Assembly: GCA_964022095.1 (NCBI GenBank)
Contig: CAXHZO010000001.1
Coordinates: 160,001-224,000, forward strand
Direction of reading: 5' to 3'
Source of the DNA: an uncultured Arcobacteraceae bacterium
GTDB taxonomy: Bacteria; Campylobacterota; Campylobacteria; Campylobacterales; Arcobacteraceae
DNA length: 64,000 bases
This document shows positions 57,179 to 62,124 of this stretch, piece by piece; positions within the stretch are counted from its first letter, which is position 1; every line of letters begins with the position of its first letter. The notes beneath the pieces were generated by a model. That model made no database searches, was not told where the DNA came from, and worked only from the letters and a program-made list of their open reading frames with translations. Both the position numbers and the translations under genes were made by a program.

Positions 57179-58048
57179 TTAGTTAGCTACTTTTTCTTTT
57201 GAGAACATTTTTAAAAGATCAGATAAAGTCTTTTTCATATCACTTCTATTAACAACCATATCAATAGAACCTTTTTCAAGTAAGAATTCAGCTCTTTGGA
57301 ATCCTTCAGGTAAATCTGCACCAATAGTTTGTTTAATAACTCTTTGCCCAGCAAATCCTATTAAAGCACCTGGTTCTGCCATGATAATATCACCTAAGAA
57401 TGCAAATGAAGCAGAAACTCCACCCATTGTAGGATCAGTTAAAATTGAAATATATGGAAGCTTAGCATGGTCTAATCTTTTTAATGCAGCTGAAGTCTTT
57501 GCCATTTGCATTAATGCAAAAGTTGACTCTTGCATTCTAGCCCCACCAGAAGCTGAAACAATTATTAAACCTTGATGTTTTTCAATTGCTCTATTTACAG
57601 CTCTTACAATTTTTTCACCTTCAACAGAACCTAAAGATCCTCCCATAAATGAGAAATCAAATACAGCAAGTTGTACACCAGCACCATTAATAGTAGCTTC
57701 ACCACTAAGAACAGATGATGTTCTTCCTGTTTTCTTTTCTGCTTCTTGAACTCTTTTTTTATAAGACATTTTATCTACAAATTTTAAAGGATCGTTTGGC
57801 TTTAAATCAGCATCGTATTCAACAAAACTTCCCTCATCAGTTATAATCTCAATTCTTCTTTTTGCCCCAATTCTCATATGAAAATTACATTTTGGACAAA
57901 TGTTATTTTGATTTTCTACCTCTTTAAAAAACATCAAAGCACTACACTCTGGACATTTAATCCAATGTGTAGGTGCATCTTTTTTTGTTGGCTGCTCTTT
58001 TGAACTACTTTCAAAAGAAATCTTACTAAATAGGTTTTTTAAATCCAT
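57179..58048 (-). CDS. accD: Acetyl-CoA carboxylase carboxyltransferase beta subunit
   Basis: WIKCPEC...CPKC, FMGGSLG, SGGARMQE and GFAGQRVI motifs. Confidence 0.97.
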   Translation of the reverse strand: MDLKNLFSKISFESSSKEQPTKKDAPTHWIKCPECSALMFFKEVENQNNICPKCNFHMRIGAKRRIEIITDEGSFVEYDADLKPNDPLKFVDKMSYKKRVQEAEKKTGRTSSVLSGEATINGAGVQLAVFDFSFMGGSLGSVEGEKIVRAVNRAIEKHQGLIIVSASGGARMQESTFALMQMAKTSAALKRLDHAKLPYISILTDPTMGGVSASFAFLGDIIMAEPGALIGFAGQRVIKQTIGADLPEGFQRAEFLLEKGSIDMVVNRSDMKKTLSDLLKMFSKEKVAN

Positions 58049-58066: not shown

Positions 58067-59275
58067 TTAAATATTCTCAAATTTTTCTAATTCATTAAGT
58101 TTTTCCCAAGGATAATCACCTTGTCCAACTTGTCCTCTTGCAGCAACATCTGCATAAAGGAATGTATCTTTACTTGGCTTATCTAAACCAAATTTTTCAG
58201 TAATCCATCTTGGTGTTAATGGGAAAGTACTCATTACAAACTCTGATAATTTATCATCATCAAATTTTGTATAAGTTCCCATTGTATCTACTGCAATAGA
58301 AGTTGGTTTTGCAACACCAATTGCATATGAAATCTGAACAATTGCTTTTTTTGCAAGTCCAGATGCAACGATATGTTTTGCAATCCAACGAGCAGCATAT
58401 AATCCACTTCTATCAACTTTTGTATAATCTTTTGAACTTTGAGCTCCACCACCAATTGGTGCATACCCTCCAAAAGAATCAACAATAAGTTTTCTTCCCG
58501 TTAAACCACTATCAAATAGTGAAGAGTGACTAACATATTTTCCTGTTGGATTAATATGTATAATTGTATCATTTTTATCATATAAGTTTGCAGGTAAGCC
58601 TGTATCATCAATTAATGTTTGAATTAATGCTCTTACTTCTTCAATTGGCATTCCCTCTTTTGAAGGTGCACTAACAACTATTGTATGAATTTTTTGAGGT
58701 TTACAGTTTTCAAAGTTTTCTTTTGAACCATAATCTAAAGTTACCTGAGTTTTAATATCAACTCCTAAAGTATCTTTATGAGCTAAGGCATAATTGTAAA
58801 CTTTGTCACTTAACATTCTTGCATAAGTAATAGCAGCTGGCATATACTCATCTGCTTCTATTGAAGCAAATCCGAACATAATACCTTGATCTCCAGCTCC
58901 AATTTCTCCAGTTTCTTGATCTACACCTTGTGAAATATCAGGAGATTGTTGGTTTAATAAAACTTTTACATCTACGTCTTCTGGATATAAACACTGCTCT
59001 TTAGTAAATGCAGATTTTCCATCATAACCAATTTTAATAAGTGCATCTTTTACAAGATCTTCATATTCAGCGTCACTTAAATGACATTTTGACTTCACTT
59101 CCCCACCAATAACAACATGCTTTCCTGCTACAAATACTTCTGAAGCAACTCTTGAGTTTTTATCTTCAATAATTAATTTATCTACAATTGAGTCAGCAAT
59201 TATATCAGCACATTTATCAGGGTGTCCGGGGCTCACAACTTCGCTTGTGAACAAATAGTGTGTATTGTTTTCCAT
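58067..59275 (-). CDS. metK: S-adenosylmethionine synthetase
   Basis: YLFTSEVVSPGHPDK, GAGDQG, DSGLTGRK and KVDRS motifs; probable start is ATG 59275 (MENNTHYLFTSE). Confidence 0.95.
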   Translation of the reverse strand: MENNTHYLFTSEVVSPGHPDKCADIIADSIVDKLIIEDKNSRVASEVFVAGKHVVIGGEVKSKCHLSDAEYEDLVKDALIKIGYDGKSAFTKEQCLYPEDVDVKVLLNQQSPDISQGVDQETGEIGAGDQGIMFGFASIEADEYMPAAITYARMLSDKVYNYALAHKDTLGVDIKTQVTLDYGSKENFENCKPQKIHTIVVSAPSKEGMPIEEVRALIQTLIDDTGLPANLYDKNDTIIHINPTGKYVSHSSLFDSGLTGRKLIVDSFGGYAPIGGGAQSSKDYTKVDRSGLYAARWIAKHIVASGLAKKAIVQISYAIGVAKPTSIAVDTMGTYTKFDDDKLSEFVMSTFPLTPRWITEKFGLDKPSKDTFLYADVAARGQVGQGDYPWEKLNELEKFENI

Positions 59276-59356
59276 TTTTGTTTTCCATCCTTTTGTTTTC
59301 CAGAAGCCTAAGCTCCGTTGTTTTCCATTCTTTTGTTTTCCATTTTTGTTTTCCAA
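59265..59356 (-). repeat. Six TGGAAAACAA direct repeats with a central hairpin in the metK leader
   Basis: Copies start at 59355, 59342, 59327, 59302, 59287 and 59274. Confidence 0.92.
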
Positions 59357-59479
59357 CTAATAATAATTTATATAAGTTAAAAAATAAAATAAAATTTAAA
59401 AGTATGAACTTTAATACTCTTTATACGTATTTATAAAAAGTATTGGATTATATCCAAAACTTTTTAAAATAAATTAATT

Positions 59480-61285
59480 TTATTCTACTGTTACTGATTT
59501 TGCTAGGTTTCTTGGCATATCTACATCATTACCAAGTCTAATAGAAATTTCCATTGAAAGAAGTTGAAGAGCAACTAGCATTTCGAAAAACTCTAACATA
59601 TAGTGATCTGTTTTAGCAGTTTTTATAAAGTCATCTGCAAGTTCAAAATCTAGTGGTGAAATTGCACATATAGTACTATCTCTTGCGCTTAACTCTTCCA
59701 CATTTGATTTAATTTTATCATATAATAAATTTTGAGGCATAAGTGCAATTGTAAATAACTCAGGATCTGCAAGTGCAATTGGTCCATGTTTCATCTCACC
59801 TGCTGGGTAACCTTCTGCGTGTAAGTATGAAATCTCTTTTAATTTTAAAGCACCTTCAAGTGCCAGTGGGAAAAATACATCACGTCCTATGAAGAAAAAT
59901 CCATGTCCATGAAGATATCTTTTTGATAATCTTCTTGTTTTTTCATGAATTTTATCATTTACTACAAGTGATTTTGGAACTTCTCTTAAAGCATGTAACT
60001 CTTCTTGCATTTTCTCTTTTGTAATTACATTTTTAGTTTTTGCAAAACTTAATGCTAACATCCATAAAACAACTGTTTGAGTTGAAAATGCTTTTGTTGA
60101 AGCAACACCTTTTTCAATTCCTGCTCTTGTTAAAATTGTAGCATCAGCAGTTCTAGTCATAGATGAGTTATCAACATTACAAATAACTAATGTTTTTAAT
60201 CCTGCATTTTTTGCCATTTTTAATGCTTCTAAAGTATCAGCTGTTTCACCACTTTGAGAAATAACTACAAATAGCGTATCTTTTGTAAGTAATGGTTCTT
60301 TATATCTAAACTCACTTGCAATTTCAATATTACATTTAACTTTTGAAAGTCTTTCAAATAAATATGAAGCTGTTAATCCTGCATGATAAGAAGTACCACA
60401 AGCACAAATTTTAATTTCATTTATTCCTTCAATTAAAGAAGAATCAATTTCATCAAAATTTATTTCATCATCAGCAATTCTTCCAAGCATACAATCACTT
60501 ACTACATTACTTTGCTCATAAATCTCTTTTTCCATAAAGAATCTAAATCCATCTTTTTGGGCAAATTGTTTAGAATTAGGTAAAGTACTCCATGAGTAAT
60601 CATCACTGAAAAACTCAATTGAATCAGCACTTGCAATTCCTCCAACTCCATCTTCTAAATATACTACCTCATTTCCAAGTCCTATTAAAGGAGCATCAGA
60701 AGATGCAAATAATACTTCATCTTTTTCATTTCCTTTAGCAATAATTAGTGGACTTCCATGTTTAAAGAAAAATACTTTTGTAGGGTCTGCTTTTGTAATA
60801 AGTAAAATCGAAAAAGCACCTTCTAAACTCTCAATAGTTTTTTTGAATGCAGCTGTTGTGTCATTTAATTTATTGTAAAAGTTTTCAAATAAGTGAACAA
60901 TTACTTCTGTATCTGTTTGAGATACAAATTTATGTCCTTTTGAACTTAAATCATCTTTTAACTCTTTATAATTTTCAATAATACCATTATGAACTACATA
61001 TGAATATTCACCTAAGTGAGGATGTGCATTTAATTCTGTTGGCTTACCATGAGTTGCCCATCGTGTATGACCAATACCAATTTCATATTCGTCTTTTGAA
61101 ACACTATCATTAACTTTTTCTTCAAGATTTACCAATTTTCCAAGAGCTTTAAATACATCGATTTTTTCATCTTTTAATACAGCAATCCCTGCACTATCAT
61201 AACCTCTATATTCTAACTCTTTTAATCCATCTAGTAATATCTTAGTAGTCTGTTTTTTACCAATATAGCCAACTATTCCACACAT
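59480..61285 (-). CDS. glmS: Glutamine--fructose-6-phosphate aminotransferase
   Basis: MCGIVG, GHTRWATHG, SQSGETADT and PRNLAKSVTVE motifs. Confidence 0.98.
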   Translation of the reverse strand: MCGIVGYIGKKQTTKILLDGLKELEYRGYDSAGIAVLKDEKIDVFKALGKLVNLEEKVNDSVSKDEYEIGIGHTRWATHGKPTELNAHPHLGEYSYVVHNGIIENYKELKDDLSSKGHKFVSQTDTEVIVHLFENFYNKLNDTTAAFKKTIESLEGAFSILLITKADPTKVFFFKHGSPLIIAKGNEKDEVLFASSDAPLIGLGNEVVYLEDGVGGIASADSIEFFSDDYSWSTLPNSKQFAQKDGFRFFMEKEIYEQSNVVSDCMLGRIADDEINFDEIDSSLIEGINEIKICACGTSYHAGLTASYLFERLSKVKCNIEIASEFRYKEPLLTKDTLFVVISQSGETADTLEALKMAKNAGLKTLVICNVDNSSMTRTADATILTRAGIEKGVASTKAFSTQTVVLWMLALSFAKTKNVITKEKMQEELHALREVPKSLVVNDKIHEKTRRLSKRYLHGHGFFFIGRDVFFPLALEGALKLKEISYLHAEGYPAGEMKHGPIALADPELFTIALMPQNLLYDKIKSNVEELSARDSTICAISPLDFELADDFIKTAKTDHYMLEFFEMLVALQLLSMEISIRLGNDVDMPRNLAKSVTVE

Positions 61286-61353: not shown

Positions 61354-62124
61354 CTAATTTAATAACTTAATTAATCTTTCGTGAATATAGGTATTTGTTG
61401 CAACTATATATTTGTCTTCAAAAAGCTTATAATCACTTCCATCTAAAGTCGTAACTTTACCACCTGCTTCACTTAAAATTATAATACCAGCACTCACATC
61501 CCAAGCTTTTAAGTTCATTTCATAATAACCTTCATATGTCCCTCGTGCTACTAAACATAAATCAATTGCTGCACTTCCAAGTCTTCTAATATCTTGGCAC
61601 TTTGGTAAGATTATTTTGATTTTTTCGATTACATCATTTAAATCATCTTTATTTGTTCCATTTGAATATGGAAATCCTGTAGCCATAAGTGCCTTTTGGA
61701 AATCACTTTCATTAGATACTTTTATTTGTTTTCCATTTAAATATGCACCTTGACCTATTTGAGCTTCATACATTTCATCTAAAATAGGATTATAAACTAT
61801 TCCTATAAATGGTTTTTTATCTTTATAAACTCCAACAGAAATAGCTGTATGAGGAACACCATTTACAAAATTTGTTGTTCCATCAATTGGATCAATTATA
61901 ATTGAGTCTTTAAATTCACAATTTGAATTATCTGATTCTTCAGCAATTAAATTAAAATCTTTAAACTCTTTTGCAAACTTCTCTTTTAAAAAGTCCTCAA
62001 CTGCTACATCATATTTAGTTACTAAATCTTTTTTAGCTTTAAAAGTTACATCCTTATTTGAGTAATAACCTTCATATAATATTTTTCCCGCTTCTTTTAT
62101 AATTTCTTTTAGTTTTTCTTTCAT
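61354..62124 (-). CDS. suhB: Inositol monophosphatase family protein
   Basis: IDPIDGTTNF, RRLGSAA and WDVSAG motifs; probable ATG at 62124. Confidence 0.88.
   Translation of the reverse strand: MKEKLKEIIKEAGKILYEGYYSNKDVTFKAKKDLVTKYDVAVEDFLKEKFAKEFKDFNLIAEESDNSNCEFKDSIIIDPIDGTTNFVNGVPHTAISVGVYKDKKPFIGIVYNPILDEMYEAQIGQGAYLNGKQIKVSNESDFQKALMATGFPYSNGTNKDDLNDVIEKIKIILPKCQDIRRLGSAAIDLCLVARGTYEGYYEMNLKAWDVSAGIIILSEAGGKVTTLDGSDYKLFEDKYIVATNTYIHERLIKLLN

Follow-up and report, generated by a model that had tools for sequence, protein, structure and literature searches.

A mirror-symmetric repeat array in the metK leader of Arcobacteraceae is a candidate RNA operator of S-adenosylmethionine synthesis

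Introduction

The leader of metK, the gene encoding S-adenosylmethionine (SAM) synthetase, in an uncultured Arcobacteraceae bacterium (GenBank assembly GCA_964022095.1) contains six identical short repeats, arranged in mirror order around a small hairpin and running into the metK start codon. The array lies in a 64,000-nucleotide (nt) stretch of contig CAXHZO010000001.1 (positions 160,001 to 224,000 of the forward strand; hereafter, the window), and all coordinates refer to positions in this window. On the basis of its distribution across genomes, the co-variation of its two arms and the compensatory changes in its hairpin, we consider it very probable that the array functions as a cis-regulatory RNA acting on metK translation. 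The effector is a more tentative matter, for which direct binding of SAM to the leader is weighed below against several alternatives.

A repeat array spanning the metK start codon

Inside the metK leader, the minus strand carries six exact copies of TGGAAAACAA between positions 59355 and 59265, at the places listed as units R1 to R6 in Table 1 (the sixth exact copy occupying 59265-59274). The units are spaced by 13, 15, 25, 15 and 13 nt, centred on the sequence GGAGC-TTAG-GCTTC (59316-59303). Copy number, spacing and central hairpin had been described in an earlier note on this stretch of DNA, and all of them were recovered on the minus strand; Tandem Repeats Finder reported the array as two separate arrays. 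Beyond the cluster, the window holds one further exact copy of TGGAAAACAA (61726-61735), and allowing up to one mismatch yielded 16 matches in the window against 14.1 ± 3.4 expected. The word count in the window being close to expectation, it is the cluster that is unusual, and not the word itself. Both strands of the 2.57-Mb genome contain 29 exact copies and a single cluster, located in the metK leader. The genome-wide search for unit clusters suggested in the earlier note was also performed with a relaxed unit (GGA[AC]AAC, at least three within 80 nt on either strand), and again identified the metK leader alone.

Reading from the sequence, each GGA in the array lies 8-10 nt 5' of the next AUG. 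The GGA of R5, together with the preceding AAGGA, is likely the Shine-Dalgarno (SD) sequence of metK, with the GGA located 8 nt before the ATG at 59275. The assignment of this ATG, within the last repeat, as the metK start is supported by the protein alignment with the structure of PDB accession 4le5, which begins at residue 7. Other reading-frame features pointed out previously are also present in this genome: TTG 59356 is in frame with metK, ATG 59343 opens an upstream open reading frame (ORF) of 11 codons with its stop at 59310-59308, and ATG 59288 opens a 23-codon out-of-frame ORF ending at 59217.

Table 1. Features of the metK locus, given as positions in the window.
Feature	Coordinates	Strand	Description	Basis
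Unit R1	59346..59355	-	UGGAAAACAA; preceded by U, giving TTG 59356	sequence, unit consensus
Unit R2	59333..59342	-	with ATG 59343	sequence, unit consensus
Unit R3	59318..59327	-	with ATG 59328	sequence, unit consensus
Central hairpin	59303..59316	-	GGAGC-UUAG-GCUUC; folds at -6.2 kcal/mol	
Unit R4	59293..59302	-	CUGGAAAACAA, without AUG	sequence
Unit R5	59278..59287	-	with ATG 59288	sequence
Unit R6	59265..59275	-	metK start codon and codons 2-4 (AUG GAA AAC AA)	sequence
U-rich tract	59374..59408	-	UUCAUACUUUUAAAUUUUAUUUUAUUUUUUAACUU; core CAnACUUU invariant in relatives	
P1	59415..59442	-	5'-terminal leader hairpin, 11 bp, 6-nt loop	RNAfold minimum free energy
Candidate -10 box	59447..59452	-	TATAAT of metK promoter	read from sequence
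metK	58067..59275	-	S-adenosylmethionine synthetase, 402 aa	best solved relative PDB 4le5, E = 5.4e-197

Distribution of the element across genomes

A metK gene was found in all 41 related genomes searched, and the DNA upstream of it was then read. Units were present before metK in 23 of the 24 Arcobacteraceae loci read, and in none of five loci from other families encoding the same MetK type. A search with a two-unit pattern located the element in 182 of 184 Arcobacteraceae genomes (the reversed pattern, used as a control, gave one match in all), with nearly all listed places falling in one cluster per genome and stray single matches in two genomes. A sample taken across the order contained the element in 18 of 19 Arcobacteraceae genomes and in 17 of the 18 from a second family (f23). 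Four further families gave isolated matches, and the other 20 families of the sample gave none. Fourteen of these order-wide match places were fetched for reading. All nine fetched f23 loci, and one 1.6-kb contig labelled as belonging to family f10, carry units directly before metK. No metK start is contained in the fetched stretches of two f8 matches, which by eye look like coding sequence, or of the two matches comprising two units only (f8, f26), which by eye look like starts of other genes. The comparison of metK upstream regions advocated in the earlier note revealed units and mirror spacing that are kept across two families and a hairpin that covaries, and the element is specific to metK.

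At least 53 further distinct metK leaders with the element were identified in a metagenome scan. In a public genome collection, the matches listed for the two-unit pattern were mostly single chance matches in unrelated phyla, and the loci with multiple matches among those listed came only from Arcobacter, Halarcobacter, Arcobacteraceae or Campylobacterales records.

Several individual loci depart from the common arrangement. One small genome (1.3 Mb) of Arcobacteraceae has no units before metK, three of its congeners having 2+2 units, and another genus keeps 1+1 units without a hairpin; both are natural examples of loss or of a minimal form. In one assembly the leader and the first ~60 nt of metK occur twice, flanking a run of N, which looks like a scaffolding artefact. 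Two unrelated genes from other families of the order seemingly begin with GGAAAAC-AAAA-ATGGAAAAC, an SD-like unit followed by a MEN... start, indicating that a single unit pair at a start codon can arise outside metK. Finally, four metagenomic loci contain GGAAAAC tandem arrays of 15-20 copies with a period of 12, 14 or 16 nt and no metK start nearby; these are apparently unrelated, microsatellite-like repeats that match the pattern.

Unit consensus and leader architectures

The anatomy of the element was compared over about 150 distinct leaders, three of which, including those with two long gaps, were left out of the hairpin and spacing counts. Three architectures can be distinguished: 3+3 units around a hairpin, as in the present genome; 2+2 units flanking a hairpin, where the start codon follows one period later; and four contiguous units spaced 13-13-13, with a variable middle linker and a third unit lacking the U and the AUG. 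Hairpin and hairpin-less forms co-occur within each of two genera, which implies that conversion between forms has happened more than once.

The consensus of the unit in 61 six-unit leaders is (A)UGGAAAACAA. Positions G1 to C7 are 100% conserved by definition of the unit used, the U before GG is kept in 84-100% of cases and the two A residues after C in 64-100%. The AUG is retained at R2, R3, R5 and R6 in 98-100% of these leaders, and the A of the AUG is not conserved at R4, yet the U before GG is kept there in 84%. Variants tied to a single position, namely GGACAAC at R2 alone and the missing AUG at R4, are shared by inheritance between genera, indicating that the copies have not been homogenised by slippage or conversion, and matched linker lengths would therefore need selection to be maintained. 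Five leaders from two genera carry an extra module, ~50-90 nt long and placed within the 5' arm or ahead of it, in which unit-like GAAAAC words stand opposite complementary GUUUUG/GUUUCC strands and which may constitute a built-in antisense partner for the units.

Mirrored linkers and a covarying central hairpin

Mirror spacing was observed in 56 of 61 leaders of the 3+3 form and 45 of 47 of the 2+2 form, with patterns including 13,15/15,13 and 12,14/14,12, and symmetry holds without exception in the 27 hairpin-less leaders. Of the 47 leaders of the 3+3 form derived from genomes, 43 are mirrored, and none of the 47 shows the same-order spacing of a simple direct duplication. Minority spacing patterns are mirrored in nine of 13 leaders, as (12,14/14,12) in four genera, (12,15/15,12), (13,14/14,13) and (14,15/15,14), and three genera each hold at least two different mirrored patterns. 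Shuffling the right arms among leaders in 10,000 permutation trials gave a mean of 25.9 mirrored leaders and a maximum of 33, against the 43 observed, a difference that the non-independence of related genomes overstates. Equal linker lengths on the strands leaving a hairpin suggest that the arms are held in register, and the two repeat arms hence appear to lie side by side, with the SD sequence and the AUG in the 3' arm.

In 119 of the 120 leaders designated class A, the insert that separates the inner units folds with greater stability than its own shuffles do on average (mean folding energy of -6.7 versus -1.8 kcal/mol for shuffles), one apparent exception in the hairpin count being a degenerate hairpin-less leader. 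These inserts range from 14 to 139 nt in length and comprise 112 distinct sequences. In 116 of the 120, the stem is followed by exactly one unpaired nucleotide and then by the next GG, and the stem starts 3 nt (76 leaders) or 4 nt (30 leaders) after the preceding GGAAAAC. Among 16 leaders with 19-nt inserts, two-sided changes occur in all five stem pairs; 94.6% of cells pair, compared to 34-46% when the partner is slid, and the covariation score was reached by none of 500 shuffles. The central element is an RNA hairpin, and joining the two inner units is its sole conserved job. The earlier argument that the symmetry of the array was selected, rather than generated by slippage, gains substance from these comparisons, which show a symmetry kept and co-changing on both arms across two families around a hairpin that covaries.

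Known RNA families and regulators

No match to any of the 4227 Rfam models was detected in the leader at E <= 10, or in the loci of 20 relatives at E <= 5, a search that had likewise been suggested from the sequence. The SAM-I riboswitch (RF00162) was found neither in the leader nor in the relatives' loci or the whole genome, with positive controls in three known genomes. SAM-II (RF00521) and SAM-V (RF01826) were absent from the leader and its relatives, and their genome-wide search was negative with silent controls, which makes it weak evidence; a whole-genome search for S-adenosylhomocysteine (SAH) riboswitches also gave no match, again with silent controls. The only SAM-II-type match in the stretch was a weak one, to the related model RF01726, inside glmS (59603-59649; 16 bits against a cut-off of 44 bits). 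The earlier view that the leader has no SAM-I/II-like fold is borne out, insofar as no known SAM riboswitch model matches it. No terminator-like site was found, and no clusters of the same or of antisense units were found elsewhere in the genome; with the metK cluster alone in the genome, a regulon or a small RNA using such units was rejected.

Regulatory proteins were searched for as well. The methionine (Met) repressor MetJ (PF01340) was not found in the genome, with a positive control in E. coli. Its operator consists of tandem 8-bp metboxes in the promoter (no search for their consensus was made), as opposed to the 13-15-nt units of a transcribed leader reported here, and a MetJ operator is not supported. 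CsrA (PF02599) was detected in none of 25 Arcobacteraceae genomes, including the present one, but 10 of 16 genomes belonging to other families in the order have it (controls positive), so that the Arcobacteraceae seem to have lost this global regulator. A GGA is present in every unit, overlapping the SD sequence, and lies in a hairpin loop in no predicted fold. Neither TRAP (TrpBP, PF02081) nor HutP (PF09021) was found in the genome, the Bacillus subtilis control being positive for both, and Hfq was not found in it either. CsrA, TRAP, HutP and Hfq were rejected as binders, the proteins not having been found in these searches, and the CsrA and TRAP-like mechanisms put forward in the earlier note are not supported.

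A proposed fold and its possible effector

We propose that a cis-acting RNA operator in the metK 5' leader would set translation initiation, most likely through negative feedback by SAM. From its 5' end, the operator would comprise a promoter-proximal hairpin, a U-rich tract, and two A-rich arms of two to three (A)UGGAAAACAA units with a connecting hairpin whose sequence and length are arbitrary; the 3' arm would end in the putative SD sequence (R5) and the start codon (R6). The joining hairpin would set R3 beside R4, and the mirrored linkers, together with the hairpin, lead us to infer antiparallel arms in register (R3:R4, R2:R5, R1:R6). The sequence UGGAAAACA could pair with itself in antiparallel orientation, with a U-A and a G-C pair at each end closing a 5x5 all-purine loop. 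Numbering the unit U0-G1-G2-A3-A4-A5-A6-C7-A8, the predicted interactions would be U0-A8', G1-C7', five purine-purine oppositions, C7-G1' and A8-U0'. A ladder of such dyad-symmetric purine loops would bury the ribosome-binding site, including the U and G of the metK AUG and the GGA of the SD sequence. This marginal fold would be locked by an effector, turning translation off, with SAM on the purine loops as the single likeliest effector; in the present genome, the U-rich tract may pair with the 5' arm as a competing 'on' form.

Several features of the leaders fit this zipper model. It accommodates the 3-nt/1-nt asymmetry at the base of the central stem, as an A8-U0 pair plus a 2-nt bulge, the U retained at R4, and the identity of position 8 in the unit 5' of the hairpin, which is A (39) or G (22) opposite U. 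In the hairpin-less form, U0 and position 8 are lost exactly where the model places them in the loop (in the third unit for U0). Under nearest-neighbour rules, a zipper with 2-bp clamps costs +1.3 to +3.2 kcal/mol over the hairpin alone, a small cost that suggests a poised, rather than self-sufficient, fold.

The competing conformer would involve the U-rich tract, whose CAnACUUU core shows no variation in any of the 46 class-A leaders aligned. The 203-nt leader of the present genome has a predicted minimum free energy of -35.6 kcal/mol (RNAfold; z = -5.15), in which the U tract pairs with R1-R3, and the duplex between the U tract and the 5' arm is predicted at -16.0 kcal/mol, versus -8.6 kcal/mol for shuffled arms. 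Pairing of R1 with upstream sequence is predicted at 0.3-0.84 in most class-A leaders, and R4-R6 are mostly unpaired in the present genome (predicted probability 0.67-0.75).

Several observations weigh against the proposal. The clamp pairs (C7-G1', A8-U0') never vary and so provide no covariation support, leaving their pairing a matter of interpretation, and RNAfold never picks the zipper fold. In this genome, the helix of the U tract with the 5' arm (-16 kcal/mol) would far outcompete the zipper. Over 60 leaders, that same duplex has a mean z of -0.78 and in most lineages does not surpass shuffled arms, and the CAnACUUU core is missing from the hairpin-less leaders; given this weak family-wide complementarity and the missing core, the competitor role of the U tract is indicated for some clades only, in which it is likely an 'on' conformer. 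Arrays of short, single-strand, sequence-conserved motifs are also more typical of protein sites than of metabolite aptamers, and we know of no SAM aptamer of this look. The sole RNA evidence consists of two RNA-library contigs (59192-59356 and 59192-59340), which are possibly DNA carry-over and from which the transcription start site and the expression level cannot be read; no RNA run bridges the U tract, the repeats at 59370-59404 having been skipped.

SAM is favoured as the effector because conserved metK leaders, the commonest site of SAM riboswitches, have a strong prior likelihood of sensing SAM, because there is one target per genome, and because no candidate protein was found. A translational operator to which SAM binds directly, and hence a riboswitch candidate, is nonetheless a tentative reading, with odds somewhat short of even. 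Rather doubtful is a new SAM-sensing RNA class with no likeness to known aptamers, a modular 'purine zipper' in which two to three identical, dyad-symmetric UGGAAAACA:self internal loops would each bind ligand and close cooperatively over the ribosome-binding site. Of equal novelty would be dimeric MetK reading the loops via its adenosine pockets. A protein-dimer ladder, or docking of the 3' arm on the helix formed by the U tract and the 5' arm, would meet the same geometry.

Alternative explanations

The alternative that best survives, though we judge it less likely than not, is that two to three copies of a homodimeric RNA-binding protein bridge the arms and occlude the SD sequence and AUG, MetK itself being the most economical choice and a clade-specific protein the other. 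In the case of MetK, whether its substrate or product is bound would decide RNA binding. Multimeric RNA-binding proteins such as TRAP, CsrA and HutP are usually recognisable by short, sequence-conserved target motifs in variable number, as with the 1+1, 2+2 and 3+3 forms here. A dimer ladder across two antiparallel strands would require mirror spacing, and autoregulation would explain the single target per genome without an extra gene. This explanation is weakened by the failure to find CsrA, TRAP, HutP or Hfq and by the lack of a conserved neighbouring regulator gene. MetK of the same type, moreover, exists without the leader in other families, and no leader-specific basic patch was seen in it, a weak test for which three of the six leader-less sequences were usable. 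K81, V214 and H240 alone are near-invariant across 22 leader-bearing MetK sequences while differing in those leader-less sequences that could be aligned.

It is improbable, in our assessment, that the leader is a constitutive expression element, in which an unstructured, A-rich sequence with several SD-like GGA and AUG sites would serve a highly expressed gene as a platform for ribosome standby or enhancement, possibly also stabilising it, without sensing. A-rich leaders do enhance translation initiation, and both the predicted unpaired state of R4-R6 and the placement of each GGA 8-10 nt before the next AUG agree with such a role. A constitutive platform, however, leaves unexplained the covarying hairpin placed exactly between R3 and R4, the mirrored linker lengths, the loss of the AUG at R4 and the occurrence of the element at no other gene in the genome.

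Decidedly improbable is the setting of metK translation by the supply of Met or formylmethionyl-tRNA (fMet-tRNA), through competing starts or stalling on Met-containing upstream ORFs. The AUG is kept at R2, R3, R5 and R6 (98-100% of 61 leaders) and, at a spacing of 13, the AUG of R5 opens an out-of-frame ORF over the metK start in most leaders. At 12-nt spacing, however, R5 is in frame with R6, and in hairpin-less leaders the unit that precedes the start lacks an AUG; some upstream ORFs end in the hairpin, some pass the metK start and some are in frame. The upstream ORFs of 91 distinct leaders vary freely in frame, stop and length (0-85 codons), which makes both a leader peptide and a conserved competition of defined ORFs unlikely. 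Those described in the earlier note are particular to the present genome, and the control it had built on them is not upheld. Leader-peptide attenuation was rejected for the same differences in frame, length and stop.

We attach very little credence to the remaining two explanations. The units could by analogy be substrates of a SAM-dependent RNA methyltransferase reporting the SAM level, since here, as in the METTL16/MAT2A system, the mRNA of a SAM synthetase bears an A-rich motif of 9-10 nt six times. This is a resemblance only, the units being absent from hairpin loops in the predicted folds and the sole match to the RlmF/METTL16 family (PF05971) in the genome lying below the cut-off (18.8 versus 23 bits). 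Least credible of all is a DNA-level operator, with iterons for a transcription factor, or a set of neutral slippage repeats: direct repeats of 13-15 bp do lie downstream of a promoter-like site, but the two arrays are separated by 14-139 nt, always with a hairpin showing compensatory changes, which fits RNA folding and not helical phasing, position-specific variants are inherited orthologously, and MetJ was not found.

Promoter region and gene neighbourhood

The TATAAT box at 59452-59447 noted previously is present in the sequence, and a TAnAAT-like box precedes the first hairpin by the same distance in relatives from many genera as well as in the second family; the TATAAT box was not among the sites returned by a simple sigma-70 scan. 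A 13-bp stem had been proposed at 59413-59444, and a stem of similar size, 11 bp, is predicted there between 59442 and 59415 (P1 in Table 1). Relatives carry, by eye, a hairpin of different sequence at the place of P1, and RNAalifold on a MAFFT alignment of 46 5' regions yielded no consensus structure, P1 and P2 each varying too much in length among leaders for MAFFT, and their covariation was judged by eye.

A glmS-like ORF (59480-61285, minus strand, 601 aa) ends 204 nt upstream of the metK ATG, and an accD-like ORF (57179-58048, minus strand) lies 18 nt downstream of metK, both names being derived from reading the translations and not from a family search. The gene upstream of metK is glmS here and in many relatives, with other sequence in the remaining ones. 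In hairpin-less relatives the leader lies within ~100 nt of the glmS stop, and a promoter of its own is not obvious. The encoded MetK begins MENNTHYLFTSE, and the closest solved structure to this MetK type is PDB 4le5, reportedly the Campylobacter jejuni enzyme and described as a dimer. Two MetK types occur in the order, the one encoded here (61-91% identity among carriers) and a second that is ~45% identical to it. At least nine of the 41 genomes searched have both, including both genomes of the genus with the 1+1 leader.

Discussion

The metK leader resembles the SAM-II and SAM-V riboswitches, which are short, AU-rich translational switches found before Met and SAM genes in AT-rich bacteria. 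In these riboswitches, U-rich and A-rich strands join and hide the SD sequence upon SAM binding, and the metK leader similarly has a U-rich tract and A-rich strands, with the SD sequence and AUG embedded in the A-rich part. It differs from them in having no covariance-model match and no classic H-type pseudoknot, and its core of four to six repeated units in mirror order occurs in no known SAM riboswitch class. As a regular array of short motifs over a ribosome-binding site, the leader is also reminiscent of the TRAP-trp, HutP-hut and CsrA-pgaA leaders, and the hut mRNA carries its 3+3 HutP sites in two sets split by a spacer, as do the motifs described here. The metK unit, however, spans 9-10 nt with a 12-16-nt period, in contrast to the 3-nt motifs and 5-7-nt periods of TRAP, HutP and CsrA-type leaders, and its spacing is mirrored around a hairpin, whereas multi-site protein leaders repeat the same order.

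A further parallel is provided by mammalian MAT2A mRNA, in which six conserved nonamer-like motifs are sensed by METTL16 in a SAM feedback loop. That system is eukaryotic, resides in a 3' untranslated region, and controls splicing and stability through motifs placed in loops; the metK element is a bacterial 5' leader with units outside loops, and, unlike the MAT2A system, no clear METTL16/RlmF homologue was found in its genome. Orphan metK-associated motifs such as SAM-Chlorobi, a clade-restricted leader with no proven ligand, were reportedly described by Weinberg and colleagues in 2010. Motifs of that kind have other sequence and architecture than the metK leader, and the Rfam models that include them do not match it. 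As a clade-specific metK leader RNA, the element is of a familiar kind, but no catalogued RNA family shares its architecture. The main text of a comparative study on how Met genes are regulated in Proteobacteria (Leyn et al., 2014; PMC4239095) mentions none of five Campylobacterota names. In the literature that we searched, neither an Arcobacteraceae riboswitch nor a Campylobacterota metK leader was described.

The element is nearly universal in two families, occurs only before metK and extends over its start codon. Its architecture is novel, combining identical quasi-palindromic units, mirror spacing that co-varies and a hairpin conserved only in its closing, and with a core of ~90 nt, its natural 1+1, 2+2 and 3+3 versions amount to a ready deletion series. 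The element would hence represent a riboswitch of a new class, bearing several identical sites, or else an RNA-protein operator of a new type, and should MetK read the loops, it would be a bacterial counterpart of autoregulation between an enzyme and its mRNA. With neither MetJ nor a known SAM or SAH riboswitch found here, the element is a strong candidate for the control of SAM synthesis in the Arcobacteraceae.

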